Made by a program: the position numbers and the translations under genes. From Casimicrobiaceae bacterium (GTDB taxonomy: Bacteria > Pseudomonadota > Gammaproteobacteria > Burkholderiales > Casimicrobiaceae), in assembly GCA_041911995.1 (NCBI GenBank), contig JAYRNW010000216.1:261-64260 (forward strand): 64,000 nucleotides of DNA, written 5' to 3'. Shown piece by piece: positions 1,754 through 58,435 of the stretch. The notes under the pieces were generated by a model that was not told where the DNA came from, searched no databases, and saw only the letters and a program-made list of their open reading frames with translations. Positions within the stretch are counted from its first letter, which is position 1. Each line of letters starts with the position of its first letter.

Positions 1754-3156
1754 GGCGCGTCGCCCCCGCCGCGACGCCGCGGCCGGTCCCGGTCAGGATC
1801 TGCCGCACCCGGATGCAGCATCACGCCTGCCAGTACCGCAAACCACATCGCGCACGCAGGCATGTGCAGCGCAAAGTCGAACATCGCGTGCAGGAACGGC
1901 GGCACCAGGGCAATGCCCGCCGCAATCTGCAGCAGCGTGAAGCTCCGCGCGTCGGTGCGCCGCAGGAGCTCGCGCATGCGCATGAAGTAAGCTGCCACGA
2001 CCAGCACCACGAGCAGCGGCGCGACCAGCCCGACTTCCATGAACAGCTGCAGAAAGTCGTTGTGCGCATAGTCGATGTAGCCGCCGAAGACGTCGGCCTG
2101 GAAGCGCGGGAACACCGCGGCAAAGGTCGAGAGCCCGCTGCCGAACGGAAGGAACTCGACGGCAGCGCGAAGCGTGGCCGCCGAAAGCGCAAGACGCCCA
2201 CCGCCGGAGAGCCGCAGCTCCGCGGGCCCGAACCTGTCGAGGACCGGTGCCAATCCGATCAGCGCCGCCAGCACGAGCCCTGCCGCCACCAGCGCGAACA
2301 CGAGCCATCGCGCGTGCCGCCGACCCGGCCGCGTCCGCTGGAGCAGGATCGACGAGAGCGCGAGGCCGACCAGCGCCGTCGCGATGCCGCCGCGCGAGAA
2401 TGTGAAGATCAGGCAGACGAGCACCAGCACGGCGGAGGCGAAGATCAAGGCGCGCTGCGAAACCAGGTTCGCACCTTGGCCGGAGTGGAGTCGTCCATCG
2501 TGCCGGCGGCGGCGCGCGTCGAAGGCCAGCAGTCCCACGATCACCGGCAGCATCATGGCCAGCAGCGACGCGAAGTGGTCGCGGTTGACGAAGGTTCCGG
2601 TCGCCATGCCGTTGGTTTGCGTGTTGCGCAGGCTGACGATCGAATCGCCGCCGGCCCCCACCTGCATCAGTCCCAGCATGCCTTCCACGCCGACAAGGAT
2701 CGTCATTGCGAGAAGCAACCGCGACACCTGCGCCGCGGCGAGCGCCCGCACGCCGAACAGGCACGCGAGCGGCGGCAGCAGCGCGAGCCAGCCATACTCG
2801 GTCGCGGCGGGCGCCGCGGAGATCGCGCGCCACACGGACCCGGATGGCGGCGTGGCGAAGCGCTCGACGATGGTCGCATAGTTCGCGCGTCCCGGCAGCA
2901 TGCGCCACAGCGCCTCGGGGAGCGGCACGAGCTGCAGCAGCGGATACGCGAGCGCGAGGGCCAGCGCGATGCGCAGCGGCCAGGGCAGCGCCGGCTCGGG
3001 AACGCGACCCCGGCGCAGCGCCAAGGCGAGCAGCAGCGCTATCGCCGCCAGCTCCAGCAGCAGGAGCGGCACGGCACGATTGCCCGCCTTGTACAGCGGC
3101 GCCGCCAGCACGAAGAGCGCGTACGAATAAAAAAACGTGGAGCCCGCCGGCCCCAC
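1750..3156 (-). CDS. O-antigen ligase / Wzy_C family membrane protein
   Basis: Many TM helices; GTFVNRDHFA, TFSRGG, PFGSGLSTF, YAHNDFLQ motifs. Start uncertain (GTG 3156 chosen; ORF is open to 3351). Confidence 0.85.
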   Translation of the reverse strand: MGPAGSTFFYSYALFVLAAPLYKAGNRAVPLLLLELAAIALLLALALRRGRVPEPALPWPLRIALALALAYPLLQLVPLPEALWRMLPGRANYATIVERFATPPSGSVWRAISAAPAATEYGWLALLPPLACLFGVRALAAAQVSRLLLAMTILVGVEGMLGLMQVGAGGDSIVSLRNTQTNGMATGTFVNRDHFASLLAMMLPVIVGLLAFDARRRRHDGRLHSGQGANLVSQRALIFASAVLVLVCLIFTFSRGGIATALVGLALSSILLQRTRPGRRHARWLVFALVAAGLVLAALIGLAPVLDRFGPAELRLSGGGRLALSAATLRAAVEFLPFGSGLSTFAAVFPRFQADVFGGYIDYAHNDFLQLFMEVGLVAPLLVVLVVAAYFMRMRELLRRTDARSFTLLQIAAGIALVPPFLHAMFDFALHMPACAMWFAVLAGVMLHPGAADPDRDRPRRRGGGDAP

Positions 3157-3188
3157 GTTCGCGTTGCGCGGCGAGGTGGCGATCGCGA

Positions 3189-3881
3189 TCAGTTGGGGCT
3201 GACGGACGGCTTCCTGAAGTACTCGTAGACGCCGACGCCAATGGCTCCGGCGCCGATCAGGCGCAAGGCCGCGTCGTTGGCACCGGCGCCCGCCACGGCC
3301 TCGCCGGGCGCGGGGCCCACCTGCGCGACCTCGCCCAGCAGGCACCGGCAATCGGCGACACGCACGGTGAAGCGCTCGTTCTCCTTGAGCCTGACGTCGC
3401 AGCCGTTGTCGAAGTTGACGACCACTCCGGCGCCCGCGGTGGTCAGCACGCGCGCACCCGACGCCACGCGCTGATCCCTGGCGGCCGCGACCATTGCATC
3501 GTCCCGGCTCACCAGCACATTGCCCTCGAGGTCGATCAGGCGGGCCACCGGGTCGCGGCTGGCCTGCGAATCGTCCTCACCCGCAAGACATGCGCATTCG
3601 CCGTCGTGCACGGTGAAGCGCTGGCTTTCCTTCAGCGTGACGTCGCAGCCCCCGTCGTACCTCACGACCACCCGGGCCCCCTTCCCTGTAACCACCCGCG
3701 TGCCGGTGGCGATCCGCTGGCCGTTGACGGCCGGGACCATCGCGTCGCCCTGGCTCACCAGCACGCTCCCCTGCATGTCGGTGAGGCGCGCCATCGCGCC
3801 GCGCTGCTGTTGTGCGGCGGCGACCCCCGTGACCAGGACGGCGGCCGCGGCCAGCAAAGTGCAAGCGATTCGGATGTCCAT
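3189..3881 (-). CDS. Exported protein with two tandem FecR-like beta domains and a C-terminal hydrophobic tail
   Basis: Signal peptide MDIRIACTLLAAAAVLVTGVAAA; internal duplication ARLTDMQGSVLVS..DGGCDVTLKE / ARLIDLEGNVLVS..DNGCDVRLKE; ends GAGAIGVGVYEYFRKPSVSPN. Confidence 0.7.
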   Translation of the reverse strand: MDIRIACTLLAAAAVLVTGVAAAQQQRGAMARLTDMQGSVLVSQGDAMVPAVNGQRIATGTRVVTGKGARVVVRYDGGCDVTLKESQRFTVHDGECACLAGEDDSQASRDPVARLIDLEGNVLVSRDDAMVAAARDQRVASGARVLTTAGAGVVVNFDNGCDVRLKENERFTVRVADCRCLLGEVAQVGPAPGEAVAGAGANDAALRLIGAGAIGVGVYEYFRKPSVSPN

Positions 3882-3937
3882 GTCGTTCAAAGGCGGCGGG
3901 CGATGCCCGCAGCCCACATTATCGACCCCCGGAAGGG

Positions 3938-5170
3938 CTAGTCAAGGCGGCGCACGCGAAGATCGTCGAACCACAGCCTGCCATCGAGCCGAACCGTGAC
4001 GTCGCCTGGCGTATCGGCATCGCGCCGCGGATTGGCGAGTTCCAGCCGCAGGACCTGCACGGGACAATCCTCGGGCACCCGGAAATCCTCCTGCCATCGA
4101 TTCCATCCGGAACCACCGGCGAAGCGGCCGCTGCGCGCGAGCTGCCGCGGACCGCTCGTGCCTTGCGGAAGGCAATACAGGCCCCACTGAAGGCCAAGCC
4201 AGGTCTGCAGCGCGTCCGCGCGGCCGCGACCTTCGAAGCGGAACCTGCCCGCATCGAGCATCAGGTATTGCTGCACCGGCGGTCCGCTCCAGCGCTTGTT
4301 CAGGAACTCGACCTTCAGCGCGCGACTTCCCCCCGCACCCTCGACGGGCTGGGTGTCGACGGCGGCGGCGTCCCGCGGCGCCACGATCCAGTCGAAGCCC
4401 AAGTCCGACAGCGGCAACTCGAAGTCGCCGTTGAAGACGTAGCCGATGCGCTGTCGCTGCTCGGGCGGCAAGCTGTTGAGCCATGCCTGGTATGCGGTCG
4501 GCCAGCGGTTCTCGCGCTGCAGGCGGCCCACGATGCAGCGGCGCTCGCGGGCGGTGGCCGTTCCCGCTGCGGCACGCACCGTCAGGATGCGCTGCAGCGC
4601 GCCGGCATCGCGCGCTTTCGCGCAGGCGTAATCCGCGAATTCGGGCCACCACTCCGGATTGTCGCGCGCGACACCGGCGAAGAACGGGTACAGGCTCCCG
4701 TCGTCGAGGCCGGACGCCATCGTCGACCAGAGGCCGGATCGCGCATCGGGATAGAGGTCGGCGACGCGCCGCAGCAGCGCCATGGCCGGCGGCGCTTCGC
4801 CCGCGCGCAGGTGGAACGCGGCAGCCTCGAGCAGCGTCTGGCGGTCGGCGGGCGCTTGCCGTACGGCCTCGTCCATGGCGGCACGTGCCTGCGCGACGTC
4901 GCCGCGCGCTTCCGATGCCCGCGCGAGCATCACCAGCGCAACATAGTCGTGGGGCGCGTGCGCGAGTCGATCGCGCCACGCCATTTCCACCGTGCGGGTT
5001 GCCTGCTTCGATGGCGCGGGATCGAGATCCATTGCCCGGTCCGCGTCCCCTCCCGCATTCATCGCGGCGACGATCGCGCGCCACGCAAGCACGAGCGCAA
5101 CGGCGAGCAACGCGGCCGCCGGCAGATGCCGGGCTGGCCGCGCCGGCTCGGTCTCGTTCGGCAACGTCAC
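3938..5170 (-). CDS. Membrane-anchored TPR protein with a C-terminal carbohydrate-binding-like (jelly-roll) domain
   Basis: N-terminal TM; Ala-rich TPR-like helices; VFNGDFE..FDW motif typical of CBM4/9-like domains. Confidence 0.65.
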   Translation of the reverse strand: MTLPNETEPARPARHLPAAALLAVALVLAWRAIVAAMNAGGDADRAMDLDPAPSKQATRTVEMAWRDRLAHAPHDYVALVMLARASEARGDVAQARAAMDEAVRQAPADRQTLLEAAAFHLRAGEAPPAMALLRRVADLYPDARSGLWSTMASGLDDGSLYPFFAGVARDNPEWWPEFADYACAKARDAGALQRILTVRAAAGTATARERRCIVGRLQRENRWPTAYQAWLNSLPPEQRQRIGYVFNGDFELPLSDLGFDWIVAPRDAAAVDTQPVEGAGGSRALKVEFLNKRWSGPPVQQYLMLDAGRFRFEGRGRADALQTWLGLQWGLYCLPQGTSGPRQLARSGRFAGGSGWNRWQEDFRVPEDCPVQVLRLELANPRRDADTPGDVTVRLDGRLWFDDLRVRRLD

Positions 5171-6606
5171 GGCAGTCCCGGAACCTGCGAAATGCGCGTG
5201 ATCACGACGCGACCATCGCGCCGGGCGAGCTCGAGCTCCATCGAAAGTCGCTGCTCGAACTCGCGCCCGTCGCGCCAGCCGATACGCACGTCCGCGTCGG
5301 CGATTGCGCGCATCGCCTCACCGTCGGGCGTCCAGCTCACGCGCGCGAGCCGCATGCGGCGCAGCACCGAATCCCTGTACAGCGCTTCGTACTCGCGCTG
5401 GATCGCATCGCGGCCGCGCACCTGGTTCGTTCGCGCATCGCGGTCGAACAAGCCGGCAAACGCGTCGGGTCGGCCCTGGTTGAACGTATCGGCGAACGCG
5501 ATCAACACGGCCTCGATCTCGTCTTGACCCAACGCGCGCGTGGCGCGGGCCGCCGCATCGTTCACTCGGGCGTCGGCCCCGGTTGCCGCCGGGCCATCGC
5601 TGGCGGACGGCGTGCCGGTCACCGCAGCGCCGGGAGGTCCGGCCGCAACCGCGTTGCCGGAGTCGTCGCGCGGCGCCGGATTGCCTATCGCACGCCCCCC
5701 GTCGGCGGGCATCGCGGGCGACATGGTGCCGGCGCGCGTAGGCTCGGGCTCGAGCACGCGCAAAGGCTCGGCGGGCGCGTCTACGGGCGGACGCGTTACG
5801 GCCGCGGGGGCAGCGACGGAGTCCACCGGCGCGGCTGGCGGCGCGTCGAGCGCGGCCCGCGGCGTCGCCACCGGCAACGCCGCGGGCGCCCGCGCGTCGC
5901 GCATGAGAGGCGCCGCGCCGCGGTCCCACCACGCCGTTCCGACGACGAGCGCCGCGACCCCGGCGAGCGCGGCGAACGCGACCGCCGCCGGATGGCGGCG
6001 CGCGAGCCCGCCGACGCCCGCCGTCAGCCATTCGGGCAGGACGGGACGCGGTGGTGGGCGGCGCCCGACCGCGACCGTGCGCGGCCAGCGCGCCGCGGGG
6101 GTCGCCGCCGCCGCGTTCGCTCGCGCCTGACGCGCGCGGGCGCGGGCCGCGCGCTCGGCCTCGCCGCGATCGAGCGCGCCGCGCGCGCGGTCGTCGCGCA
6201 GCGTGGCGTAGGCGCGGTTCGCCTGCGCTGCGAACGACGGCGGCCATGCCGCACGCGCGCCCTGGCGATCGGGATGGACCAACTGCATCAGCAGCCGGAA
6301 GCGGGCCTTGACGGCCTGTGGCGTCGCGTCCGGCGCGAGTCCGAGCGTTTCGTACGGCGAAGCCTGCGGACGGAACAGCACGTCGCGCACGTACGCGCAC
6401 GCAGCCTCGCGCAGGACGGCGGGGTGGAGCCCGCGCAGCGCCGGATCGCCGAGGTCGACCGACCGCCCGAGCGCCAGCCGCAGCACGACGTCGCCGTCGA
6501 CCGGCTGCGCGCCCGCCCGTCGCATCTCGAAGCGAAAGCGCGAAGGCTCCCGCGCAAACCAGACCAGCAGCCTCGCCGTGTGGTCCGCGGCGGCGCGGTC
6601 GCGCAT
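5167..6606 (-). CDS. J-domain protein with TM helix, Pro/Ala linker and C-terminal NTF2/SnoaL-like domain
   Basis: PYETLGLAPDATPQAVKARFRLLMQLVHPDR (HPD motif); TM AVAFAALAGVAALVVGTAWW; IEAVLIAFADTFNQGRPDAFAGLF...GRDAI. Confidence 0.78.
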   Translation of the reverse strand: MRDRAAADHTARLLVWFAREPSRFRFEMRRAGAQPVDGDVVLRLALGRSVDLGDPALRGLHPAVLREAACAYVRDVLFRPQASPYETLGLAPDATPQAVKARFRLLMQLVHPDRQGARAAWPPSFAAQANRAYATLRDDRARGALDRGEAERAARARARQARANAAAATPAARWPRTVAVGRRPPPRPVLPEWLTAGVGGLARRHPAAVAFAALAGVAALVVGTAWWDRGAAPLMRDARAPAALPVATPRAALDAPPAAPVDSVAAPAAVTRPPVDAPAEPLRVLEPEPTRAGTMSPAMPADGGRAIGNPAPRDDSGNAVAAGPPGAAVTGTPSASDGPAATGADARVNDAAARATRALGQDEIEAVLIAFADTFNQGRPDAFAGLFDRDARTNQVRGRDAIQREYEALYRDSVLRRMRLARVSWTPDGEAMRAIADADVRIGWRDGREFEQRLSMELELARRDGRVVITRISQVPGLP

Positions 6607-6672: not shown

Positions 6673-8925
6673 CTACGCGAGGCGCGCGGCATCGTTGGTG
6701 CTCCGATAGTAGTAGTACGCGCTTTCGTAGCCGTACATGCCGTCGCGCAGGTCGAGCTTGGTCATCACCGCGCCGACGGGCGCGACGCTCGCCTGCCGCA
6801 GCCGCTTCAGCGCCGCGCGCAGGTGCGCCTTGCGCGTGGTCCCGGCCGCGACGACGAACAGCACGGCGCCGACCTGGTTGCCGAGCACGAGTGCGTCGGC
6901 GATCCCGAGCACCGGCGGCGCGTCGAGGACGATCGCCGGAAAGCGCGCGGAGAGCTCGGCCAGCAGCTCCAGCAGCTTCGGCCCGGACAGGAGCTCGACC
7001 GGATTGGGCGGCACCGGACCCGCCGGGATCACGAACAGGTTGGGGATCGTCGTCGGCCGCACCACGCCCAGCGCGGGCACGTCGCTCGACAGGAAGTTGG
7101 AAAGGCCGCGCGCGTTGTCGACGCCGAGCAGCCGGTGCAGCGCCGGGTTGCGCAGGTCGGCGTCGATCAGCAGCACCAGCTGGCCTGCCTGCGCCTGGTT
7201 GATGCCGAGCGCGATGGCCGACGTCGACTTGCCCTCCTTCTCCGACGTGCTGGTGACGACGAACTGTCGCGGCGCCCCGTCGCGCGTCGAGAACTGCAGC
7301 GCCGTGCGCACCGAGCGATAGGCCTCGGCGAACGCCGAGCGCGCGTCGACGTGCGACAAGAGCGCGAGCGCGTCGCCGCCCTTGCGCGGCTTGACGCGCG
7401 GAATGACGCCCAGCACCGGCAGGTGCGCGACCCGCTCCATGTCCTCCGGATGCTGCATCGTGTCGTCGAGGTATTCGAGGAAGAACGCGAGCCCGATGCC
7501 GAGGGCCAATCCGAGCAGCGCCGCCACCTGCAGGTTGAGCGCGAGGTTCGGCTTGAACGGCGACCCGGGCACCAGCGCCGAGTCGACGACGGTGACGTTA
7601 TTGGTGCCCACGCCGCCCTGCACGCCGACCTCCTTCAGGCGCTGCAGCAGGCCGTCGTACAGCGAGCGGTTGGTCTCGACCTCGCGCTTCAGCACGTTGT
7701 AACGGATGCTGCGGCCCTGCAGGTCGAGCACGTCCTTCTTGGCGGCCTCGAGCTTCGCCCTGACGCTCGCCTCCTGCTGCACGGCGACGCTGTACGCGCC
7801 CTCGATGGCGCGCCGGGCGATCGCGGTTTCCTCGCCGATCTTCCGGTCGATCTCGTCGATCGCCGCCTTCAGCTGCTGCATTCGCGGATAGGCCGGCTTG
7901 TAGACGCGCGACAGGTCCTGGTACTCGACCTCGAACTTGGTCTTCTGCTCGCGCAGCGCCGTCACCGACTTGCTGTCGAGCATCTGCGGCGAGGACTCCG
8001 GGCTCTCCCGGAACTGCCGCCAGACGGCCTCGGCCTTGATCCGATCCTCGCCGGCCTTGGCCGACGCCGCGTTGTAGGCCGCGAGCGTCTGCGCCAGCAC
8101 GTTCTGCTTCTCGTCGACGTTGATGATCTGCTGGTCGCGCTGGAAGTCGACGAGCGCGCGCTCCGAATCCTCGAGCTTCGCCTTGGTCTGCGCGAGCTGC
8201 TCCTCGAGGAACGTCTTCGCGTACGACGAGGCGTCGTAGCGCCGCTCGAGGTTCACCGCGATGAAGTTCTGCGCCAGCGCGTTGAGCGCGTCGGCAGCGA
8301 GCCGCGGGTCGGGCGAATCGAAATAGAGGCGAACCAGGCGCGAGTTGCGGACGGGCTCGACGGTGAGCGAGCCCAGGAATGCGCCCGCCGCGGCGACGTT
8401 GCGGCCGGCCTCCGGCTCCGCTGCCGGTGCCGGCGCCGGCGCGCGGGCGTCGCCCGGCACGAGGTCCGACCACCAGCTCTTCCGCGGCTCCTCGTTCGCG
8501 GGCGATCGCTGGCGGAGATTGAGCTGAGCGACGACGCGCTCGGCCAGCGAGCGGCTCTTCAGCAGCTCGTACTGCGTCCGGTAGAAATCGAGGTCGCCGA
8601 TCTCCTCGGGCACGACGCTGCCGCCCTTGAAGTCGATCACCTTCGACGCCTCGCGCTCGATCTTGAGCGTGAGCGCCGACCGGTAGATCGGCGTCGCCGC
8701 CAGCGTCACCATCAGCGCCGCCGCGACGACGATCAGGAACGCGGCGATCACGACCCACTTGCGTTTGACGACGACGCGCCACAGGTCGCGGAAGTGGATC
8801 CCGTCGTCGTCGGCTTCCGCGGCGACCGGCGGCAGGACGTACGTCGACAGCGCGCCCTGCGCGCGCACCTGCACCGCGGCGCCGGCCGCGGGCGCCGGTA
8901 CGCCAGGTCTGTCGTGGGCGGCCAT
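6673..8925 (-). CDS. wzc: Polysaccharide co-polymerase / tyrosine autokinase (Wzc/GumC)
   Basis: Two TM segments, coiled coil, Walker A TSEKEGKST, LIDADLRNP, C-terminal Tyr cluster YGYESAYYYY. Confidence 0.95.
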   Translation of the reverse strand: MAAHDRPGVPAPAAGAAVQVRAQGALSTYVLPPVAAEADDDGIHFRDLWRVVVKRKWVVIAAFLIVVAAALMVTLAATPIYRSALTLKIEREASKVIDFKGGSVVPEEIGDLDFYRTQYELLKSRSLAERVVAQLNLRQRSPANEEPRKSWWSDLVPGDARAPAPAPAAEPEAGRNVAAAGAFLGSLTVEPVRNSRLVRLYFDSPDPRLAADALNALAQNFIAVNLERRYDASSYAKTFLEEQLAQTKAKLEDSERALVDFQRDQQIINVDEKQNVLAQTLAAYNAASAKAGEDRIKAEAVWRQFRESPESSPQMLDSKSVTALREQKTKFEVEYQDLSRVYKPAYPRMQQLKAAIDEIDRKIGEETAIARRAIEGAYSVAVQQEASVRAKLEAAKKDVLDLQGRSIRYNVLKREVETNRSLYDGLLQRLKEVGVQGGVGTNNVTVVDSALVPGSPFKPNLALNLQVAALLGLALGIGLAFFLEYLDDTMQHPEDMERVAHLPVLGVIPRVKPRKGGDALALLSHVDARSAFAEAYRSVRTALQFSTRDGAPRQFVVTSTSEKEGKSTSAIALGINQAQAGQLVLLIDADLRNPALHRLLGVDNARGLSNFLSSDVPALGVVRPTTIPNLFVIPAGPVPPNPVELLSGPKLLELLAELSARFPAIVLDAPPVLGIADALVLGNQVGAVLFVVAAGTTRKAHLRAALKRLRQASVAPVGAVMTKLDLRDGMYGYESAYYYYRSTNDAARLA

Positions 8926-8934: not shown

Positions 8935-9717
8935 TCAGTACCGCGGCATGTAGTTGAACGGGTTGACGATGTTGATGACGTCGCCCAGCAGCGAATCGCG
9001 CAGCGCCACCCGGCCCGGCGAGCGCTTGACCACGACGATGTCCTCGTTCACCAGCGACGGGTCCTCGAGCTCGCCCGCGCGGATGCGATCGAGGTCGTAC
9101 ACGTACGTCCGGCGCTCGCCGCCCTCGCGCCGGTACACCATCACCTCGTGCAGGTCGGGCAGCTGGCCCTGGCCACCGCCGATTGCAATGGCCTGCATCA
9201 GCGTCACGCCGCCGCGGATCGGGTAGATGCCGGGCTTAGCGACCGCGCCCTCGATCGTGATCCGCTGGCTCGTGAACTCCTTGATGAACACCGACACCTG
9301 CGGGTCGTGCAGGTAGTCCTTCGCGTACGCGGCGGCGATCTGCGCTTCGGCTTCCTGGCCGGTCTTGCCGGCCAGCACGACCGTGCCGACGAGCGGCAGC
9401 GACACCGTCCCGCGCGAGCTCACCCGCACCTCGCGGCGCAGGTTGTCGATGCCGAACACCTGGATCTCGAGCAGGTCCTGCGGCCCGATCCGGTAGTCGT
9501 CGGCGGCGACCTGCCCGGCGGGAACCGGGATCACCCGCGGGGCGTCGGGGGCGAGCGGCGCCGGGCCGCTCGGCGCCGCGGGCGCCGCAGCGGCCCCGGG
9601 CGCCGGTTGCGCGAACCCGGGCGCACCGACCGCCAGCAAGACGGCGAGGACGAGGACGGCCACGCAGCTTGCCGGAGGGCGGCCGACGGGGCGTGATTCA
9701 TCGAGGAAGCGGGGCAT
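8935..9717 (-). CDS. wza: Polysaccharide export protein (Wza/GumB; Poly_export + SLBB)
   Basis: DYRIGPQDLLEIQVFG, GTVSLPLVG, GAVAKPGIY; AAGGAG RBS ahead of ATG 9717. Confidence 0.92.
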   Translation of the reverse strand: MPRFLDESRPVGRPPASCVAVLVLAVLLAVGAPGFAQPAPGAAAAPAAPSGPAPLAPDAPRVIPVPAGQVAADDYRIGPQDLLEIQVFGIDNLRREVRVSSRGTVSLPLVGTVVLAGKTGQEAEAQIAAAYAKDYLHDPQVSVFIKEFTSQRITIEGAVAKPGIYPIRGGVTLMQAIAIGGGQGQLPDLHEVMVYRREGGERRTYVYDLDRIRAGELEDPSLVNEDIVVVKRSPGRVALRDSLLGDVINIVNPFNYMPRY

Positions 9718-9767
9718 GCGCGTCTCCTTCCCTGGGTGAGGGGCCGGGAGCCGAAAACAATCGGAAG

Positions 9768-9776
9768 AGTCTAGCA
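9768..9776 (-). promoter_or_regulatory. Possible extended -10 element for the wza operon
   Basis: Minus strand TG-C-TAGACT resembles TGnTATAAT, in an AT-richer patch ~50 nt upstream of wza. Confidence 0.3.
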
Positions 9777-9950
9777 TTTCGCAGGAAATGGAGGCCATGG
9801 CGCGCCGTTGGTTCCGAGGGCACGCAAGCCGCGTGCCCGAGCGCGCGATGGCGCCGGGCCGCCCCCGGCGCGAGCGCCCGACCGACGGCGGCCGGCTCTC
9901 CGGTCCGTGGGCTAGAATCGCCTGGAACGTCCCTCGCAGAGCGCCGCCCG

Positions 9951-10217
9951 ATGAAGGTGACCGTCCCCGACAGCGTGCTTTCCACCGAGCTTCAGGACGA
10001 GGGCGTGCTGCTCAACCTGGAGACCGGCGAGTATTTCGGCCTGGACGAGGTCGGCCTCGACATGTGGAAGTCGCTGGCGGCGGCCGGAACCGTGGCCGAA
10101 GCCCAAGCCGCGCTCCTCGCGCAGTACGACGTGGCCGAAGACGTCCTCGCCCGCGACCTCGAGGCGTTCGTCGCGAGACTCGTCGAACGCGGGCTCGTGC
10201 GGAGGGTCGATGACTAG
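9951..10217 (+). CDS. PqqD-family RiPP recognition element (lasso B1)
   Basis: MKVTVPDSVLSTELQDEGVLLNLETGEYFGLDEVG..MW..L..QYDVAEDVLARDL, the classic RRE pattern; overlaps the B2 gene. Confidence 0.92.
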   Translation: MKVTVPDSVLSTELQDEGVLLNLETGEYFGLDEVGLDMWKSLAAAGTVAEAQAALLAQYDVAEDVLARDLEAFVARLVERGLVRRVDD

Positions 10218-10722
10218 CGCCCGCTGGGGCGCCCCGAGGGCGCCCCTCCATAGCTTGCGCCGCTTCCGCGCGCTTCCGTCGCACGAACGGCGGCTGCTGG
10301 TGCGAGCAATGTTCCTGCTGGTGTTGGCCAGGGTGCGGCTGCCGTCGCTCGCCTTTCGTGCCGAGCGGACTGGCGGCGGCCGCGAACCGGCGTCTTCCGC
10401 CGACGGGCGGGGACTGGCGCACGGCCAAGTCGCGGCCCGCCTGCTGGCCATTGCGGCGTCCCGCCTGCCGTTGCACACGACGTGCCTGCATCGTTCGGTC
10501 GCGCTGTGGTGGCTGCTGCGCCGCGACGGCGTGCCGTGCGCGCTGCGCCTCGGAGCCCGCGCGGGCGGCGGAGCGTTCGCGGCGCATGCGTGGGTGGAAT
10601 GCGGCGGTGTGGCGCTCGGCGAGGCGCCCGGGCACGAACGGCGCTACCACCCGTTCGCCGGCAGCGTGTGCCCCGCGCGCGGCGAAGCGTTCGCGACGGG
10701 AAGCGAACAGGCGCTGCGATGA
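10210..10722 (+). CDS. Lasso peptide leader peptidase B2 (transglutaminase-like)
   Basis: TCLHRSVALWWLL..G....LRLGAR...FAAHAWVE: catalytic Cys and His motifs. Confidence 0.92.
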   Translation: MTSARWGAPRAPLHSLRRFRALPSHERRLLVRAMFLLVLARVRLPSLAFRAERTGGGREPASSADGRGLAHGQVAARLLAIAASRLPLHTTCLHRSVALWWLLRRDGVPCALRLGARAGGGAFAAHAWVECGGVALGEAPGHERRYHPFAGSVCPARGEAFATGSEQALR

Positions 10723-12599
10723 GCGGGATCGCCGGTATCGTCCACTTCGACGGCGCGCCGGTGACTCCCGGAGAGGTCGAGCGGATGACCCGCGTGATGG
10801 CGTATCGCGGACCGGACGGGATCGCGCACTGGAAGCGCGGTCCTGTCGCGCTCGGCCAGTGCATGCTGCGCACGACGCCGGAATCGCTGGAGGAGCGGCA
10901 GCCGCTGTCAAACGAGGACGCATCCGTCGTGCTCGTGATGGACGGACGCGTCGACAACTGGGAGGAGTTGCGGCGCGAATTGCTGACGCGTGGCGCGGCG
11001 CTACGCGACCGCTCGGACGCGGAGCTGGTGCTGCGCGCGTACGAGGCGTGGGGGCGCGAATGCCTGGCCCGCATCGACGGCGACTTCGCGCTCGTGATCT
11101 GGGACGCGCGGCGCCGGGAGGCCTTTTGCGCACGCGACCGGATCGGCAACAAGCCTTTCCACTATTGGTGGGACGGCAAGACCTTCGCGTTCGCATCGGA
11201 CGCGCACGCAATACTCGCGTTGCCGTGGGTGCGCGAAGAGCTGAACGAAGGCATGCTCGTCGAGTTCCTGGCAAACGAGTGGCATTCCCCCGACGAGACG
11301 TTCTGGCGTGGCGTGCTGCGGCTGCCGCGGGCGCAACGGATGACCGTGGACGTGCGCGGTCTGCACATCGATCGGTACTGGGAGCCGGACCTCAACGCAG
11401 CGTTGGCATGCACCGATGAACAAGAGGTCGCCCGACAGTACCGGTCGCTTCTCGTGGAAGCCGTGCGCAGAATGACCCGGTCGTCGCGTGCGGTGGCATG
11501 CGAGGTAAGCGGTGGCCTCGATTCTTCGGCAATCCTATCAGTGGCCGAACATCTGCGGCGCGAACACAGGATGCTTGCACCGGCGCTCCACGCCTACACG
11601 CTGGCGTTCGGCGACGGATCGGCGGCCGACGAACTGGCATATGCGCGGGCCGTCGGCGATCATCTCGACCTCCGGGTCCGTGAGGTTGCGCCAACCAGAA
11701 AGCCGCTGTCGTGGTATCGCGAAACTGCAGAGCGACTGCGCGTGTTTCCCGCGTATCCGAACGGGGTGATGGGACTTGGCATCCGTGAAGAAGCTGCCTC
11801 GCGTGGCAGCCGCGCGCTGCTGGTCGGCGTGGGCGGCGACGAGTGGTTGTCCGGGAGCCGCTGCTATTATGCCGACACGATCGCAGCGCGCGATTGGAAA
11901 ATGGTCCGACGATGCCTGCAAGCGGATCGTCGCGATTTCGGACTCTGGCGCAGCACGTGGTGGATCTTCAGGTGTGGGTGGATTCCGCAGCTGCCACGCG
12001 GCGTCCTGGACATGCTGCGCCGTCCGCGCGACGTCGTCCGGGATGTACGGCAGGACCGCAACACGTGGCTGACGCCTGCGATGCTGAAACAGCTTCGCGA
12101 CCGCCGAGCCCGGCATCGCCGCACCGGCGATTCCGGAACGTCCAGTTTCGCGCAATGGCGGCAGCTGCAATCGCTTGAGAGCCCATACCTCGCCCACGCT
12201 CGCGAAATGGAGGAACGGCTCGCCGCGCTTTCCGACATCGAGCTGCGCCGCCCGTTCCTGGACCAGGGTCTCGTCAGGTTCGCGCTGGCGGTGCCCGAGT
12301 GGCTGAGGCTGCGGGGCCGCACCGACAAGTACCTGCACCGAATGTCCATGCGCGGATACCTTCCGGAGACGGTACGGGCGCGGGAGACCAAGGCGGAATT
12401 CGTGATAACGTTTCTCTGGCACCTGCCCGAATTGGAAGCAGCGTTCCTGAGCGGCGCAGTCCGTGCACGTACTTCGTGGGTGACCAGCGAACGCGTGACA
12501 CAGATGAGCGAGCGGATGGCCAGCGCGAAGCTCTCCGGCGCGCCGGAGTGGAAGCTCTGGTCACTGTTCGGATGTGACGCACTGGTTGCGCGCCATTGA
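10719..12599 (+). CDS. Lasso cyclase (asparagine synthetase-like, C protein)
   Basis: Starts MSGIAG (Ser where Gln-hydrolysing AsnB has the catalytic Cys); SGGLDSS PP-loop, GVGGDE, RRPFLD; ATGA overlap with B2. Confidence 0.9.
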   Translation: MSGIAGIVHFDGAPVTPGEVERMTRVMAYRGPDGIAHWKRGPVALGQCMLRTTPESLEERQPLSNEDASVVLVMDGRVDNWEELRRELLTRGAALRDRSDAELVLRAYEAWGRECLARIDGDFALVIWDARRREAFCARDRIGNKPFHYWWDGKTFAFASDAHAILALPWVREELNEGMLVEFLANEWHSPDETFWRGVLRLPRAQRMTVDVRGLHIDRYWEPDLNAALACTDEQEVARQYRSLLVEAVRRMTRSSRAVACEVSGGLDSSAILSVAEHLRREHRMLAPALHAYTLAFGDGSAADELAYARAVGDHLDLRVREVAPTRKPLSWYRETAERLRVFPAYPNGVMGLGIREEAASRGSRALLVGVGGDEWLSGSRCYYADTIAARDWKMVRRCLQADRRDFGLWRSTWWIFRCGWIPQLPRGVLDMLRRPRDVVRDVRQDRNTWLTPAMLKQLRDRRARHRRTGDSGTSSFAQWRQLQSLESPYLAHAREMEERLAALSDIELRRPFLDQGLVRFALAVPEWLRLRGRTDKYLHRMSMRGYLPETVRARETKAEFVITFLWHLPELEAAFLSGAVRARTSWVTSERVTQMSERMASAKLSGAPEWKLWSLFGCDALVARH

Positions 12600-12657
12600 C
12601 GTTGATCGCCCCCGCCTTCGGAGTCCGGATGGAGGATGTTTTACGGAGACTGCCCGT

Positions 12658-12825
12658 ATGGATGACAAAGTGCGCGAAGCTACTCCGCGCGACGCCCAAC
12701 CGCAACCGGTGAGAAGGCACTACACAAGCCCGAAGCTGCAGGATTTCGGCAGGCTGCACCTGATGACGGGAGGAGCTTCCGTGACCGGAATGGCCGATGG
12801 TTCGTCGGGAATGGCCATGCAGTGA
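12658..12825 (+). CDS. Lasso peptide precursor (55 aa); predicted core GASVTGMADGSSGMAMQ
   Basis: Leader YTSPKLQDFGRLHLMTG fits YxxPxLxxxGxxxxxT(-2); core Gly1 with Asp9 acceptor; GGAG RBS; directly follows the cyclase. Confidence 0.88.
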   Translation: MDDKVREATPRDAQPQPVRRHYTSPKLQDFGRLHLMTGGASVTGMADGSSGMAMQ

Positions 12826-12949
12826 CGCATCGCTGCCCGGCCCGCGCTCACGACTCCGAAATCGACCAACTACTCGCGATGCGCAGTTCCGAAGTCTACG
12901 GATCGCCGGCGAGCCTCTCTGAATTCATCGAAAGTCCGGCAGGTTTCTT

Positions 12950-14068
12950 GTGCTTGATGAGCACCTCGGCTACGTCGCCGACCGCGTCAGGCTCGAGCAC
13001 TTCAAGGCCGCAATCGCGCGAACGCTTAACCCTGGCGATCGCGTCGTGGACGTCGGGACCGGCTCCGGGATCCTGGCGCTACTATGCCTGCAGGCCGGCG
13101 CGGCGCGGGTTGTCCTGATCGATTCCACGGCCATGCTCGACGTGGCACGCGATACCCTCGCACGCACGGGAATGGCCGATCGCTGCGAGTTCATTCGCGC
13201 ATCTTCGTATCGGACAACACTCGACGCGCCGGCCGATGTCGTGATCTGTGACCACGTTGGCCACTTCGGATTCGACTACGACATCGCGCAAACGATCAGG
13301 GACGCTCGACGACGATTCCTGGCGCCCGGGGGTCGCGTGATTCCGCAGCGGCTCCGTCTGGAAGTCGGCGCCGTCGAATCGGCGGCCGCTCGGACGAAAG
13401 TGGACGGGTGGCGCGACGATCGCGTTCCCGGCGAATTCCACTGGCTGGTACAACGTGCCGCCAACCGCAAGCACGCGATCAGATTCTCTCCGGAATCGCT
13501 TCTTGGCGGACCAGCCGAACTCGGCACGATTCACCTCCGGATTGATTCTGCGGAGTACTTCCGCTGGACGGCAGAGCTGCGCATCGAGCGAGATGGCGTC
13601 ATGCACGGTCTCGCCGGCTGGTTCGAATGCGAACTCGCGGACGGCGTTTGGATGACCAATTCGCCGCTCGAGGATCGCGCGATCGACCGCTCGCAGGCGT
13701 TCCTGCCGATCGACGAATCGGTCCCCGTGCGCGCGGGCGACGCGGTCAAGGTCACCGTGATGGCGCGACCCGAGGACAATCTGATCGCGTGGATCGTCGA
13801 ACTGCCTGCGGCGGGTCGGCGCTTCAGCCACTCGACCTGGCAGGGGTCGCTGCTGGCCCGGGATGGACTCCTGCGCGCGCAACCAGATCGCGTGCCGAGA
13901 TTGAGCCGGGAAGGCGCGGCGCGCGCAATCGTTCTCGGCTACTGCGACGGCCGGCGCTCCGTGCGCGAGATCGAACAGGCCGTGTTGATGGACCATCCGG
14001 ACCTGTTCCCGTCGCGCGGGGAGATCGCGCGGTTCGTGGCCCAGGTGCTGGGCCGGGATACCAACTGA
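12950..14068 (+). CDS. PRMT-like class I SAM methyltransferase with a C-terminal PqqD/wHTH-like extension
   Basis: EHLGYVADRVRLEHFKAAI, VVDVGTGSGIL, G.VIP, HGLAGWFE..L..GVWMTNSP (PRMT-like barrel); tail LGYCDGRRSVREI. Confidence 0.8.
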   Translation: MLDEHLGYVADRVRLEHFKAAIARTLNPGDRVVDVGTGSGILALLCLQAGAARVVLIDSTAMLDVARDTLARTGMADRCEFIRASSYRTTLDAPADVVICDHVGHFGFDYDIAQTIRDARRRFLAPGGRVIPQRLRLEVGAVESAAARTKVDGWRDDRVPGEFHWLVQRAANRKHAIRFSPESLLGGPAELGTIHLRIDSAEYFRWTAELRIERDGVMHGLAGWFECELADGVWMTNSPLEDRAIDRSQAFLPIDESVPVRAGDAVKVTVMARPEDNLIAWIVELPAAGRRFSHSTWQGSLLARDGLLRAQPDRVPRLSREGAARAIVLGYCDGRRSVREIEQAVLMDHPDLFPSRGEIARFVAQVLGRDTN

Positions 14069-14931
14069 TGGCCGCATTCCACGTCGCGCCGCATCGTCCG
14101 CAAGCGACGGTATCGATCCCGCCCTTCCATACCTGGTCTTTCGCCGACGGAACGACGTGGACGCAGTTCTACCGCGCCGATGGCGGGTACTTGGTGCGCT
14201 TTCCCCGGCTCGCGGACTTCGAAGTTTCCGCGGACGCAGACGGCGTCACGTGCTTCCCCACACCCGAAGCGTCCGAAGCCACGGTAGAGCATCTCTTTCT
14301 CAACCAGGTCCTGCCGCTGATCGAGAGCAGACGCGGCAAGCTCGTGTTCCATGCGAGCGCGGTCGAGGTCGGCGCCGTGGCCATCGCGTTCGTCGCCGAA
14401 TCCGGCCGCGGCAAGTCCACGCTGGCGGCTGCCTTCGCCGCCGCTGGCTACCGGCTGTTGACGGACGACGGCTTGGTCGTGGAAACGGGCGAGCACGGAT
14501 TCGAGATCCTTCCCAGTCATCCTTCCATCCGGTTGTGGGACGACAGCCGCGAGGCGCTGCTACCTCCAAGCGTCGCCCAAGCGCCGGCACTGGACTTCAC
14601 GACCAAGGCGAGGGTTCTCGCCGGTGACAGCCTTCCATTCTGCGCGGCGGCGCGACCATTGCTGCATGCGTATTTCCTCGGCGACGGCAGTGCCGATCGC
14701 ATCACGATCGCGCCCATGCATCAGGTTGACGCACTCGTGGCGTGGATCGGCCACTCCTTCCTGCTCGACATCGAGGAGAAGACCCGGCTGGCCTCCCATT
14801 TCACTCAAGTCGCCGTGCTGGCGAAGCAAGCGATCCATTACCGGCTGGACTATCCCAGGAAGTTCGATCATTTGGCGGAGCTCCGTCAGACCATCCTGGA
14901 GCACGCGTGCCATGCAACCGATGCCGTGTGA
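14068..14931 (+). CDS. HPr kinase-like peptide kinase
   Basis: FHASAVE, Walker A ESGRGKST, LLTDD; TGATG coupling to the methyltransferase. Confidence 0.85.
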   Translation: MAAFHVAPHRPQATVSIPPFHTWSFADGTTWTQFYRADGGYLVRFPRLADFEVSADADGVTCFPTPEASEATVEHLFLNQVLPLIESRRGKLVFHASAVEVGAVAIAFVAESGRGKSTLAAAFAAAGYRLLTDDGLVVETGEHGFEILPSHPSIRLWDDSREALLPPSVAQAPALDFTTKARVLAGDSLPFCAAARPLLHAYFLGDGSADRITIAPMHQVDALVAWIGHSFLLDIEEKTRLASHFTQVAVLAKQAIHYRLDYPRKFDHLAELRQTILEHACHATDAV

Positions 14932-15034
14932 CCTGCGCGAGCGGTTCCCCGATGCGGCGGGCCGCGCGCTTCCCGTGCTGCACGCGAGGCGGTGGCTCGC
15001 CGCCTTCGCCCGCGGCGCGCCACGCGCCAGGTGA
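14930..15034 (+). pseudogene. Probable C-terminal relic of a nucleotidyltransferase-family gene
   Basis: DLRERFPDAAGRALPVLHARRWLAAFARGAPRAR* resembles the C-terminus of the NTase at 56346-57443 (DYMHRKFRGRSPWLLPWWYVRRAVEG); its stop overlaps the ABC GTG. Confidence 0.4.
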
Positions 15035-16734
15035 CGGCAAGCTCCCCGTCGACGTGGCAGGCGCTGGCCGTCCCGGCCGCGCCGTACCGCGGGCCATTGC
15101 TGTGGGCCGCGGCGCTCATGCTGCTCGAGAGCGCATTGGCGCTCGGCGTGCCGTGGCTCGGCGGACGCCTCGCGGGGATGCTGCTGCCGGGCGGCGCGCA
15201 CGGGTCGGCCGGCGTGGCGACGATCCTCATGGCGCTCCTCGCGGTGTTCGCGGCGCAGGCGCTGCTGCGCTTCGGCCATGCGTTCCTGCTTGGCGACGCC
15301 GCCGAGCGGATGGTTCGCGACCTCAAGGTCCGGCTGTACGACCACCTGCAGGCGCTCCCGCTCGCGTACTTCCACGCGCGTCGGCACGGCGAGACGCTGG
15401 CGCTGCTCACGCGCGACGTCCACGTCGTCTCCGGCTATGCGACCGGAACGCTGGTGCCGCTCGCGCCGCTGCTGTTCACCGTCGCCGGGTCGCTGCTGCT
15501 GATGTTCCGGCTGCAGCCGTGGCTCGCGCTCGCGGCGGCCGTGGCGATTCCGCTCTTCTACCTCGCGCTCAAGGTCGTCGGCCGCCGGCTGCGCCCGCTC
15601 GCCGCGGCGCTGCAGGACGAGCACGCGACCGCGATCGCGATCGCCGAGGAGAACTTGGGCATGCTGCCCGCCATCAAGTCGTTCACCCGCGAGCGCGTCG
15701 AGTCGTCGCGGTTCCGGCAGCAGGTCGACCGTGTGCTGCAGCTCACGCGCCGGCAGCTCGCCATGCACGCGGCGCTCGGCCCCGTCGTGCAGTTCGTCGC
15801 CGCGCTCGGCGTCGTGGCGTTGCTCGCGCTCGCGAGCCGGGAGCTCGCCGACGGCCGGATGACGCCGCCCGAGCTCGTCGCCTTCCTGCTCTACGCGATG
15901 CTGCTCGCGCGGCCGGTCGCCGGGCTGGCCGACGTCTACGGGCAGACGCAGACGGCGCGCGGCGCGCTCGCGCGGCTCCTGCAGGCGCTGGACGCGCCGC
16001 CCGAGCCGGCGGCCACCACCGGTGTCGCGCTGCCGCCGGTGCGCGGCGCGATCGCGTTCGAGCACGTGTCGTTCGCCTATCCGGGAAGGCCGCCGGCGCT
16101 GCGCGACGTCGACCTGCACGTGCGGCCGGGCGAGACGGTGGCGATCGTCGGGCCCAACGGTGCGGGCAAGAGCACGCTCGCCCACCTGCTGGTCCGCCTG
16201 CACGAGCGCACCGGAGGGCGCATCGCGATCGACGGGGTCGACGTCGCGACGGTGTCGCTCGAGAGCCTGCGGCGCGTCGTCGGCGTCGTCCCGCAGCACG
16301 TGCTGCTGTTCAACGCGACGGTCCGCGACAACATCGCGTACGGCCGCGCCGAAGCGACGCAGCCGGCGATCGAGGCGGCGGCGCGCCTCGCCCGCGCGCA
16401 CGATTTCGTCGTCGCCCTGCCGCACGGCTACGACACCGTCGTCGGCGACCGGGGCGTGCGCCTGTCGGGCGGGCAGCAGCAGCGGCTCGCGCTCGCACGG
16501 GCGCTGCTCAAGGACCCGCCGATCCTGATCCTCGACGAGGCGACCGCGATGTTCGATCCGCAGGGGGAGCGCGAATTCCTCGAAGCGTCGCGCGACGCGC
16601 TGCGCGGACGTACCGTGCTGCTGATCACGCACCGGGCGGCCAGCCTCGCAGTGGCAGACCGCATCGTGCGGATGGAGGACGGACACGTGGTCGACGACGG
16701 CGCGGCGGCGGCGCGTCCGCCGGTGTCGGTGTAG
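15031..16734 (+). CDS. ABC exporter, fused permease/ATPase (lasso D-like)
   Basis: TM domain followed by GPNGAGKST, LSGGQQQR, ILDEAT; start GTG 15031 (alternative 14992). Confidence 0.92.
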   Translation: MTASSPSTWQALAVPAAPYRGPLLWAAALMLLESALALGVPWLGGRLAGMLLPGGAHGSAGVATILMALLAVFAAQALLRFGHAFLLGDAAERMVRDLKVRLYDHLQALPLAYFHARRHGETLALLTRDVHVVSGYATGTLVPLAPLLFTVAGSLLLMFRLQPWLALAAAVAIPLFYLALKVVGRRLRPLAAALQDEHATAIAIAEENLGMLPAIKSFTRERVESSRFRQQVDRVLQLTRRQLAMHAALGPVVQFVAALGVVALLALASRELADGRMTPPELVAFLLYAMLLARPVAGLADVYGQTQTARGALARLLQALDAPPEPAATTGVALPPVRGAIAFEHVSFAYPGRPPALRDVDLHVRPGETVAIVGPNGAGKSTLAHLLVRLHERTGGRIAIDGVDVATVSLESLRRVVGVVPQHVLLFNATVRDNIAYGRAEATQPAIEAAARLARAHDFVVALPHGYDTVVGDRGVRLSGGQQQRLALARALLKDPPILILDEATAMFDPQGEREFLEASRDALRGRTVLLITHRAASLAVADRIVRMEDGHVVDDGAAAARPPVSV

Positions 16735-16750
16735 CGGCCGGGACGCGCGG

Positions 16751-17350
16751 CTACTTCTTCACGAAGTAGTAGCCGAGCTTGATGAACTCCATGATCACGA
16801 AGCCGCCCGACCGCTCTTCGCGCCACCAATCGGCGGGCGCCCACCAGTCCGGCTTCGACGCGACCAGCACGTAGTCGAGGCTCGAGCCGTCGAACACGCG
16901 GGCCCACGTCCACGCGAGCCGGCGCATGTGCGGCGGATCGCTGATCACGATCACGGAGCGCCAGCCCTGCGCGCGCATCAGAGCGAGGATGTTGACGGCC
17001 TCGGTGTAGCTGTTGCGCGAGTCGACCTCGAACCGGAGTGCGGAGCGCGGCACGCCGCGCGCTTCCAGGAAGCCCGCGCGCCACGTGAGCGCGGCCGGCG
17101 GCGCGGCGTCACCGTACTCCAGGCCGGTAAGAACGACCACCGGCGCGAAGCCGGCGCGATAGAGCTCCGCCGCGCGCAGCGCGCGGTCGCCCTCGTCGCC
17201 GCCGAGCACGACGATCGCGTCGGCGCGGCGCGGCGTCTGCGCGGGTGCTTCGAGCCAGCGTCCGGCGCCGACCCATGCGTACGCGGCGGCGGCGGCGAGC
17301 GCCGCCGCGCCGAGCGCGAACCAGAGCAGGATTCGGGGGAGCCGACGCAT
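16751..17350 (-). CDS. YdcF/ElyC (DUF218) family protein
   Basis: N-terminal TM; ADAIVVLGG, SRNSYTEA, ISDPPHMRR, MEFIKL. Confidence 0.88.
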   Translation of the reverse strand: MRRLPRILLWFALGAAALAAAAAYAWVGAGRWLEAPAQTPRRADAIVVLGGDEGDRALRAAELYRAGFAPVVVLTGLEYGDAAPPAALTWRAGFLEARGVPRSALRFEVDSRNSYTEAVNILALMRAQGWRSVIVISDPPHMRRLAWTWARVFDGSSLDYVLVASKPDWWAPADWWREERSGGFVIMEFIKLGYYFVKK

Positions 17351-17375
17351 CGCCGAAACATTGTAAGATCGCACG

Positions 17376-18335
17376 ATGAATCCCGATTCGCGCATTTACG
17401 TTGCCGGCCACACGGGCCTCGCCGGGTCCGCATTGGTTCGCGCGCTGCGCGCGGCCGGCTACGCGAACCTCGTCGTGCGCACGCACGCGGAGCTCGAGCT
17501 CACCGACGCGCGCGCGACCGCGGAATTCTTCGCGGCGGAGCGGCCGGAGGTCGTGTTCCTCGCCGCCGGGCGCGTCGGCGGCATCCTCGCGAACAACACG
17601 TTTCCGGCCGAGTTCATCGAGGAGAACCTCGCCATCGAGATGAACGTGATCCGCGAGGCGTGGCGCGTCGGCGTGCGGCGGCTGCTGTTCCTCGGCTCGT
17701 CGTGCATCTACCCGCGCGACTGCCCGCAGCCGATCCGCGAGGAGTACCTGCTGACCGGCCCGCTCGAGCCGACGAACCGGCCGTACGCGGTCGCCAAGAT
17801 CGCCGGCATCGAGATGTGCTGGTCGCACAACCGGCAACACGGCACGCATTACTTTTGCGTGATGCCGACCAACCTGTACGGCCCCGGCGACAACTACGAT
17901 CCGCAGACGAGCCACGTGCTGCCGGCGCTGATCCACCGCTTCCACGTGGCGAAGGTGCGCGGCGAGCGCAGCGTCGCGCTGTGGGGCACCGGCGCGCCGC
18001 GCCGCGAGTTCCTCTACAGCGACGACATGGCGGCGGCGTGCGTGCACCTGATGCGCCTCGCGCCCGAGGCGCTGGCCGCGACCGGCGGCGCCGACACGCC
18101 GCCGATGGTCAACGTGGGCTGCGGCGAGGACCAGACGATCCGCGAGCTGGCCGAGCTCGTGCGCCGGGTCGTGGGGGCGGACGTGGCGATCGAGTGGGAC
18201 GCGTCGAAGCCGGACGGCACGCCGCGCAAGCAGCTCGACGTCGGCCGGCTGACCGCGCTGGGCTGGCGGCAAACGGTCGGGCTGGAAGAGGGCATCCGGC
18301 GCACGTACGCCGACTACGTCGCGACGCACGGCTGA
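17376..18335 (+). CDS. fcl: GDP-L-fucose synthase
   Basis: IYVAGHTGLAGSA, LGSSCIYP, YAVAKIAG, MPTNLYGPGDN, KPDGTPRK. Confidence 0.95.
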   Translation: MNPDSRIYVAGHTGLAGSALVRALRAAGYANLVVRTHAELELTDARATAEFFAAERPEVVFLAAGRVGGILANNTFPAEFIEENLAIEMNVIREAWRVGVRRLLFLGSSCIYPRDCPQPIREEYLLTGPLEPTNRPYAVAKIAGIEMCWSHNRQHGTHYFCVMPTNLYGPGDNYDPQTSHVLPALIHRFHVAKVRGERSVALWGTGAPRREFLYSDDMAAACVHLMRLAPEALAATGGADTPPMVNVGCGEDQTIRELAELVRRVVGADVAIEWDASKPDGTPRKQLDVGRLTALGWRQTVGLEEGIRRTYADYVATHG

Positions 18336-38570: not shown

Positions 38571-40734
<2,164 letters not shown>

Positions 40735-58425: not shown

Positions 58426-58435
58426 AGCATTCGCG

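Follow-up and report, generated by a model that had tools for sequence, protein, structure and literature searches.

The 64,000-nucleotide stretch of contig JAYRNW010000216.1 from a Casimicrobiaceae bacterium that was analyzed here (the window) carries a lasso-peptide gene cluster which, judged from its sequence, is set inside a Wzy-type polysaccharide locus. A first-pass annotation of the window had claimed that seven genes in the order B1-B2-C-A-methyltransferase (MT)-kinase (K)-ABC lie between wza-wzc and a glycosyltransferase/pse block, and that B1 and wza diverge from a common region of about 230 nt. We found all seven genes on the plus strand in exactly that order and place, and the spacing between wza and B1 is 232 nt. 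The features are:

6673..8925, minus strand: wzc, chain-length determinant/tyrosine autokinase (context; TIGR01007 above cut-off, Wzz and GNVR domains)
8935..9718, minus strand: wza, polysaccharide export protein (context; Poly_export and SLBB domains, likely start ATG 9718)
9719..9950, no strand: divergent intergenic region common to wza and B1, 232 nt (sequence)
9951..10217, plus strand: B1, stand-alone recognition element for ribosomally synthesized peptides with post-translational modifications (RiPPs) (PF05402)
10210..10722, plus strand: B2, leader peptidase (NF033537 above cut-off; motifs)
10719..12599, plus strand: C, lasso cyclase (NF033535, 390 bits)
12658..12825, plus strand: A, stand-alone precursor of 55 amino acids (leader motif, core features)
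12772..12822, plus strand: predicted core GASVTGMADGSSGMAMQ (Gly1-Asp9 ring)
12950..14068, plus strand: MT, methyltransferase with the fold of protein arginine methyltransferases (PRMTs), dependent on S-adenosylmethionine (SAM), with a changed active site and, at the C-terminus, a three-helix domain
14068..14931, plus strand: K, HPrK-like kinase with a His-Lys-Asp-Asp motif (TIGR04352, E = 5e-12; motifs)
14933..15034 (about), plus strand: 3' stub of a deleted NTP_transf_5 nucleotidyltransferase gene (matches of congener NTP_transf_5 proteins)
14992..16734, plus strand: ABC, MsbA-like exporter without a peptidase domain, predicted D protein
16751..17395, minus strand: DUF218 protein (context), adjoining the ABC gene and kept there in congeners
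17376..18335, plus strand: GDP-L-fucose synthase-like gene (fcl), first of the glycosyltransferase/pse block (context; NF047922, 442 bits)

The cluster is of the lasso RiPP type, as had been proposed. B1 is a PqqD-family RiPP recognition element (RRE; 67 bits with PF05402 against a cut-off of 23, E = 1.5e-18). B2 scores 73.8 bits with NF033537 (cut-off 33) and has Cys92, His126 and an acidic residue 12 after the His, a spacing that we take to be that of the catalytic triad. For C, the best NCBIfam family is the lasso cyclase NF033535, at 390 bits under its cut-off of 525; the protein has Asn-synthase domains, an ATP-pyrophosphatase motif at 264 and, at position 2, Ser rather than the glutaminase Cys. 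An assignment of C as an exopolysaccharide (EPS)/PEP-CTERM amidotransferase was rejected on its 211 bits with TIGR03108 (cut-off 817) and the Ser at position 2. K matches HprK-related kinases weakly, with its TIGR04352 hit below cut-off, and its start overlaps the MT stop. B2, C and K all retain intact catalytic motifs. The precursor, which has no Pfam or NCBIfam match, carries a Y-x-x-P-x-L leader, an RRE motif at 12721 and Thr at -2, followed by a core of 17 residues with Gly1, Ser3, Asp9 and three methionines (Met7, Met14 and Met16) that ends in Gln, contains no Arg, Lys, Cys or C-terminal Ser, and has a computed lasso mass of 1538.62 Da. A leader profile run across the whole 3.7-Mb genome (66% complete) matched this precursor alone, and the precursor is therefore not a chance match.

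For comparison, we used 160 loci around MT homologues (80 of the 103 confirmed in GTDB genomes and 80 of 218 in metagenomes) and 100 control loci anchored on the B2 family alone. A leader-only profile yielded 134 distinct same-strand cores in the MT loci, 102 of which adjoin MT. We excluded two precursors on the opposite strand that belong to second cassettes and have no Met, together with one false match and one frameshifted copy. Asp or Glu occupies position 8 or 9 in 99 of the 102 adjacent cores, and Ser stands at position 2 in 54 of 57 scored cyclase starts of MT loci.

MT is the more novel part of the finding, ahead of the EPS co-location. It had been annotated simply as a methyltransferase, which we correct to a SAM-dependent methyltransferase of PRMT fold. 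Its closest solved relatives by sequence are eukaryotic PRMTs (phmmer against PDB, E = 1.4e-17, 19-23% identity), the predicted model (pLDDT 89.9) matches PRMT3 in Foldseek (E = 3e-26, TM 0.82 by target), and sequence and model both give a catalytic core of a Rossmann domain plus beta-barrel. This fold and the SAM-binding motif I are shared with PRMT1, PRMT3, PRMT6 and CARM1. In PRMTs, the double-Glu pair of the double-E loop holds the arginine, and the THW loop likewise belongs to the active site. In MT the first Glu is replaced by Asp101 (conserved in 142 of 143 homologues), the second by Tyr110 (130 of 143) and the THW loop by x-x-x-R247-x-Q249, with no THW among the 143 homologues. The protein further differs from PRMTs in its C-terminal three-helix domain, in being bacterial and in occurring, in the loci examined, only in lasso cassettes. 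It has at least 779 homologues among database proteins, and an atlas look-up of one homologue gave only bacterial PrmA/PRMT_C clusters with automatic names. Of the 160 MT loci, 148 contain at least one of B1, B2, C and K, while the remaining 12 are all shorter than 3.6 kb. A genuine N-methyltransferase activity of MT on arginine (or lysine), whether in the precursor or in some other protein, is very improbable. The top PDB matches by sequence and fold are all PRMTs and some databases label the homologues PRMT1, but the double-Glu pair and THW loop are replaced, the core of the window's precursor has no Arg or Lys, and among the 102 MT-adjacent cores Arg occurs in 30 and Lys in 27 (Cys in 12). 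A literature search at title and abstract level, which covered few subscription papers and no supplements, returned no paper describing a PRMT-fold lasso methyltransferase or lasso precursors fused to Peptidase_S74 domains. The PRMT-fold lasso family is apparently unpublished as well as widespread, and the co-occurrence tables of PMC13381572 may bear on the novelty of both features.

The most plausible substrate of MT is a methionine. Tail Met is present in 96 of the 102 distinct MT-adjacent cores and makes up 21% of tail residues; its commonest position is five residues past the ring acid, which corresponds to Met14 here, and this column is at least 90% conserved among 35 stand-alone precursors. 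In the control loci, tail Met was found in 1 of 24 MT-less cores, in none of the 18 of the kinase/NTP_transf_5 type and in all four MT-bearing cores. When further MT-less controls were sought in one alphaproteobacterial family, 5 of 201 genomes matched, four of them with MT. In a FastTree phylogeny of the kinases from 112 loci, the MT clusters fall essentially into a single clade; the two MT-less clusters nested in it (L244 and L272) are both without Met, as are two congener clusters that occupy the window's locus but do not have MT (L340 and L345). There is also precedent for the chemistry: longipeptin A carries S-methyl-Met13, a sulfonium, at a plug-equivalent tail position (PMC10028836). 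The correlation between Met and MT is suggestive, not proven, and on sequence evidence we put the chance that MT S-methylates a tail methionine at about even.

The adjacency of MT and K, with overlapping stop and start in the window and co-occurrence in 50 of the 51 MT loci of at least 15 kb, could be read differently. MT might methylate a target other than Met, such as the phosphate installed by K, the C-terminal carboxylate or a backbone amide, while the Met tail serves in Cu(I)/Ag binding or oxidant scavenging. The invariant Arg247 and His5/Arg14 of MT could bind an anion, several tails hold many Met, more than one plug would need, some MT-bearing clusters are without tail Met, and C-terminal carboxyl methylation is known in lasso peptides (StspM; PMC9266682). 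We nevertheless consider such a target unlikely: K is widespread without MT, and the cores are then Met-free and end in Ser in 11 of 18 cases; Met is absent in both nested MT losses; and the C-terminal residue is variable, with no other conserved target on offer.

The cluster had been described as paeninodin-like. This holds for the split B1/B2 and for the HPrK-like kinase with its His-Lys-Asp-Asp motif, as defined in PMC9266682 and PMC10368454, but not for the acceptor: the 17-residue core ends in Gln and has no C-terminal Ser, so the cluster is not a strict paeninodin member. It works like a kinase-type lasso cluster, yet by this residue it falls outside the paeninodins, just as MT by its active-site motifs falls outside the PRMTs. 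Paeninodin-type kinases require the C-terminal Ser (PMC8498205, PMC9266682), which is present in 2 of the 102 MT-adjacent cores as opposed to 11 of the 18 MT-less kinase/NTP_transf_5 controls. Other kinases act within the ring: BsfK (PMC10368454) and LppK (PMC13381572) both phosphorylate Ser3, and lasso kinases from Proteobacteria (SyanK, BsfK) are already known (PMC8498205, PMC10368454). Ser or Thr is found somewhere in the ring of 101 of the 102 cores. Compared as one group, the paeninodin and pseudomycoidin clusters (PadeK, ThcoK, SyanK, PsmK, PsmN) and the capsule-embedded pba/lpp clusters of Paenibacillus alginolyticus (PMC13381572) share with the present system the split B1/B2, the cyclase, the kinase with its motif, the MsbA-like exporter, the location in polysaccharide loci and, for most relatives of the window's cluster, NTP_transf_5. 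Unlike that group, the window's cluster has no C-terminal Ser, has an additional PRMT-fold MT and a Met-rich tail and has its NTP_transf_5 gene deleted, and its family resides mainly in Pseudomonadota, with about half of the precursors fused to S74 domains. The bsf cluster of Bradymonas sediminis (PMC10368454) is closer in having a Gram-negative host, an A-B1-B2-C-D-K(-N) gene set, Ser3 in the core and no C-terminal Ser; it differs in having Ile rather than Thr at -2 and in having no methyltransferase.

Relatives of the window's cluster show a second unusual feature. In frame with 66 of the 134 cores there follows a Peptidase_S74 domain of about 77 residues (PF13884 above cut-off in all eight tested), and at the junction a Ser and a Lys stand five residues apart in 68 of 68 fused matches, a regularity that is partly built into the search pattern. 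The spacing matches the self-cleaving dyad of S74 intramolecular chaperones such as those of endoNF and MyRF (PMC8326128), and the fused precursors are accordingly predicted to cleave themselves. In the relatives the domain follows a short lasso core and not a beta-helical fiber. One review of RiPP proteases (PMC10885120) contains no occurrence of S74, and PMC5686519 no lasso passage. The window's own precursor has its stop after the core, 124 nt before MT, and no S74 domain or remnant. In L088, L094 and L271 a stop codon lies at or just before the junction Ser with an S74 remnant behind it, which suggests that a fused precursor can give rise to a stand-alone one, like that of the window, with the same end point. 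Precursors split by a stop or frameshift from an in-frame or near-frame S74 remnant are found at L271:7398-7631, L088:911, L094:8233 and L065:9701. Separately, the fused precursors in L040, L049, L145 and L166 have Ser-Ala or Ser-Ser at the junction in place of Ser-Asp, and three of these four carry two Cys in the core.

Polysaccharide genes surround the cluster on both sides. Downstream, DUF218 and fcl are followed by a GT4 glycosyltransferase, a carbamoyltransferase, further glycosyltransferases and wzx, and the same flank includes a NeuB-family gene (34531-35574), a pseB-like gene (39721-40725) and a glycosyltransferase family 4 (wecA-like) gene. We scored such surroundings with EPS marker profiles seeded from Pfam-checked proteins, counting loci of at least 15 kb (51 of 160 MT loci and 79 of 100 controls) and 40 background windows taken from the same genomes at a distance of about 300 kb. 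At least one marker was present in 31/51 MT loci, 28/50 control loci of the kinase/NTP_transf_5 type, 0/15 of the TonB type, 3/14 others and 5/40 background windows, and at least two in 27/51, 21/50, 0/15, 3/14 and 3/40, respectively, with the reservation that profiles seeded from lasso neighborhoods may favor those loci. On other contigs of the window's own genome, one marker was seen in 2 of 49 windows. When kin were collapsed the signal was lower but kept (12.8/32 genera for the kinase/NTP_transf_5 type, 9.5/17 taxonomic groups for MT loci), and it recurs in 12 of the 17 taxonomic groups of MT loci, a family found mainly in Pseudomonadota (74 of 80 GTDB loci). The association of homologous clusters with EPS loci, on which the first-pass annotation had staked its interpretation, is therefore seen in both kinase-bearing sets; among the loci examined it is real and type-specific, though not obligatory. 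Co-location as such is not new. Paeninodin-like clusters lie inside capsular polysaccharide loci of Bacilli, where they are upregulated together with an EPS gene and their function is unknown (PMC13381572), and the reason for this placement is posed there as an open question. Our analysis extends the link to Proteobacteria and adds a TonB-type control group without it. In each of six genomes of the alphaproteobacterial genus g435 (L233-L258), a single EPS region holds two B2 genes separated by 11-29 kb; those cores that were detected there end in Ser, and MT is absent.

The placement might instead reflect hitch-hiking in a recombination hot spot, the product being an ordinary secreted antimicrobial or signaling lasso peptide. 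Modules have indeed been exchanged at this site. G+C content at third codon positions is 0.77-0.79 in C, MT and K, compared with 0.91-0.95 for wza, wzc, ABC and fcl. The identity of C, MT and K to syntenic congeners is also out of step with that of the flanking genes, as in locus L059, with 83% for Wzc and 87% for Fcl but 56% for C, 59% for MT and 53% for K; by these measures C-A-MT-K is a module that has been swapped in. We searched 138 congeners (the counts include the window's own genome, and the loci are not independent of the MT set, with which they overlap). MT was found in 6 of 138 and the window's wza in 8; B1-B2 diverge from wza in all eight, and three wza-bearing genomes carry a different cyclase-kinase module without MT (L340, L342 and, on a second contig, L345). 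An "empty" locus, with this wza but no lasso genes, was not seen among the 138, many of which are incomplete. Besides the swapped module, the deleted nucleotidyltransferase speaks for hitch-hiking, as do the 20 of 51 MT and 22 of 50 kinase/NTP_transf_5-type control loci that do not have EPS markers. We hold it to be a serious contender, though with less than an even chance: none of the 15 TonB-type lasso clusters, which are also accessory, lies beside EPS genes, the link is seen repeatedly, in 12 of 17 groups and in Bacilli (PMC13381572), and in all eight wza-bearing congeners B1-B2 keep their place opposite wza even as the module downstream varies.

The cluster had also been called complete, which applies to the core lasso machinery but not to the nucleotidyltransferase. 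Congeners carry an NTP_transf_5 gene between K and ABC, of which about the last 33 codons remain here. The stub is the best match of 4/4 congener NTP_transf_5 proteins, with up to 64% identity over 25 amino acids and E = 3e-6 (1-kb subject). An assembly artifact is ruled out, since contigs of two other studies (X6, X8) bridge the K-ABC junction with no differences, one of them also spanning wza-B1-B2-C. Near-identical DNA is found in activated-sludge metagenomes, and it is EPS that drives floc formation in activated sludge. The deletion bears on the proposal that the peptide is a phospho-glycan acceptor, phosphorylated by K and then decorated with EPS-pathway sugars by the nucleotidyltransferase or nearby glycosyltransferases. 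NTP_transf_5 is present in 39 of 51 MT loci, PsmN-dependent hexosylation of pseudomycoidin is known (PMC9266682, PMC8498205), and the contig has another NTP_transf_5 gene at a distance of about 40 kb. That copy, however, belongs to a different K-PqqD-radical-SAM cassette, and the window's core does not have the C-terminal Ser to which the pseudomycoidin sugar is attached. For this genome the proposal, which was part of the first-pass interpretation, is weakened because the cluster's own NTP_transf_5/PsmN-type gene is deleted and 20 of 51 MT loci show no EPS marker; we rate it as improbable, if less so than arginine methylation. The other first-pass readings, a surface component or a regulator of the polysaccharide system, are putative.

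Taken together, our computational analysis gives roughly even weight to the following account: a lasso peptide belonging to the polysaccharide locus that is phosphorylated by K, probably on a ring Ser, S-methylated by MT on a tail Met, cyclized and exported. By analogy with characterized systems, B1 would bind the leader and guide K, which would phosphorylate the core, probably at Ser3 as BsfK does. MT would convert either Met14, five residues past the ring Asp, or else Met16 to a branched sulfonium with a permanent charge, a possible steric plug for a tail otherwise made of small residues. B2 would cut two residues past the Thr, C would close the Gly1-Asp9 ring to give the lasso peptide of 1538.62 Da, and the ABC protein would export the product. 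The weakest step, and a speculative one, is that the exported phospho/sulfonium peptide would act together with the polysaccharide, either on the surface of the cell or within the floc matrix. Several observations weigh against this account. Fisher's p of 1e-18 for the association of Met with MT overstates it, because the link lies mostly within one clade; on the kinase tree there are two independent contrasts on supported branches (four on all branches; sign test p = 0.5). A precursor was located in just 27 of the 100 control loci, and tail Met is missing in 5 of 93 MT-bearing loci on the tree and in 6 of the 102 adjacent cores. The predicted longipeptin enzyme LopH has an MTHFR domain, not a PRMT, as its top structural match (PMC10028836), and the precedent is therefore chemical only; its actinobacterial P450 cluster also has neither kinase nor EPS context. 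The kinase site is not fixed, with Ser or Thr at position 3 in 34 of 102 cores, and in 20 of 51 MT loci the surrounding 10 kb or so contain no EPS marker. Finally, the model does not establish the C-terminal domain of MT as an RRE: the PqqD structure 3g2b came first but tied (Z 5.9, rmsd 2.5, 50 residues aligned, helices only), Foldseek gave no match at E = 0.001, and HHalign to RREs reached a probability of 0.4%. A predicted complex of MT, SAM and precursor scored 0.01 and was uninformative.

A broader account, in which a proteobacterial lasso family has repurposed the PRMT scaffold as a Met S-methyltransferase forming a sulfonium plug and combines it with ring phosphorylation and a C-terminus often set by a phage-type self-cleaving S74 domain, so that a charged peptide would be a functional component of the EPS or floc matrix, is doubtful as a whole. 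If true, a PRMT-fold enzyme with a rewired pocket would represent new RiPP tailoring chemistry and a possible tool for site-selective sulfonium formation, and such a bacterial enzyme would be a clue to the history of the PRMT scaffold. Cultured hosts of the family exist, since Mesorhizobium and Erythrobacteraceae isolates are among L053, L056, L076, L077, L084, L085 and L089.

Some further features of the window and its relatives deserve mention. A promoter scan of 9600-17500 found no sigma-70-like site, including in the wza/B1 intergenic region, and terminator-like sites in the same interval occur at chance level only. Beyond wzc, positions 953-6606 encode a CpsB phosphatase, an O-antigen-ligase-like (Wzy_C) protein, a small secreted retention-module protein, a TPR protein and a J-domain protein, a block that is mostly conserved in congeners. 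Among the relatives, L052, L136, L137 and L144 have two cyclases and two or three different precursors per array, some containing Cys, and several gammaproteobacterial cassettes (L023, L027, L034, L054, L068, L103, L104 and L110) carry small inserted accessory genes (Uma2, DUF29, Fic/Doc-like) between precursor and MT or near K. The second RiPP-like cassette of the window, at about 56400-63755, in which no precursor was identified, comprises an NTP_transf_5 domain (about 56400-57170, residues 1786-2037 of the plus-strand frame 51057-57443), an HPrK-like kinase (57511-58425), a PqqD protein (to 58714), a radical SAM/SPASM protein (58766-59824) and a large C25 peptidase/PorU-like protein (60183-63755, minus strand). 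The minus strand at 51138-57461 encodes a large NAD-glutamate dehydrogenase, and the equally long plus-strand frame over it is mostly its shadow. In L070, a kinase and a C25 peptidase likewise lie downstream of the lasso cassette.

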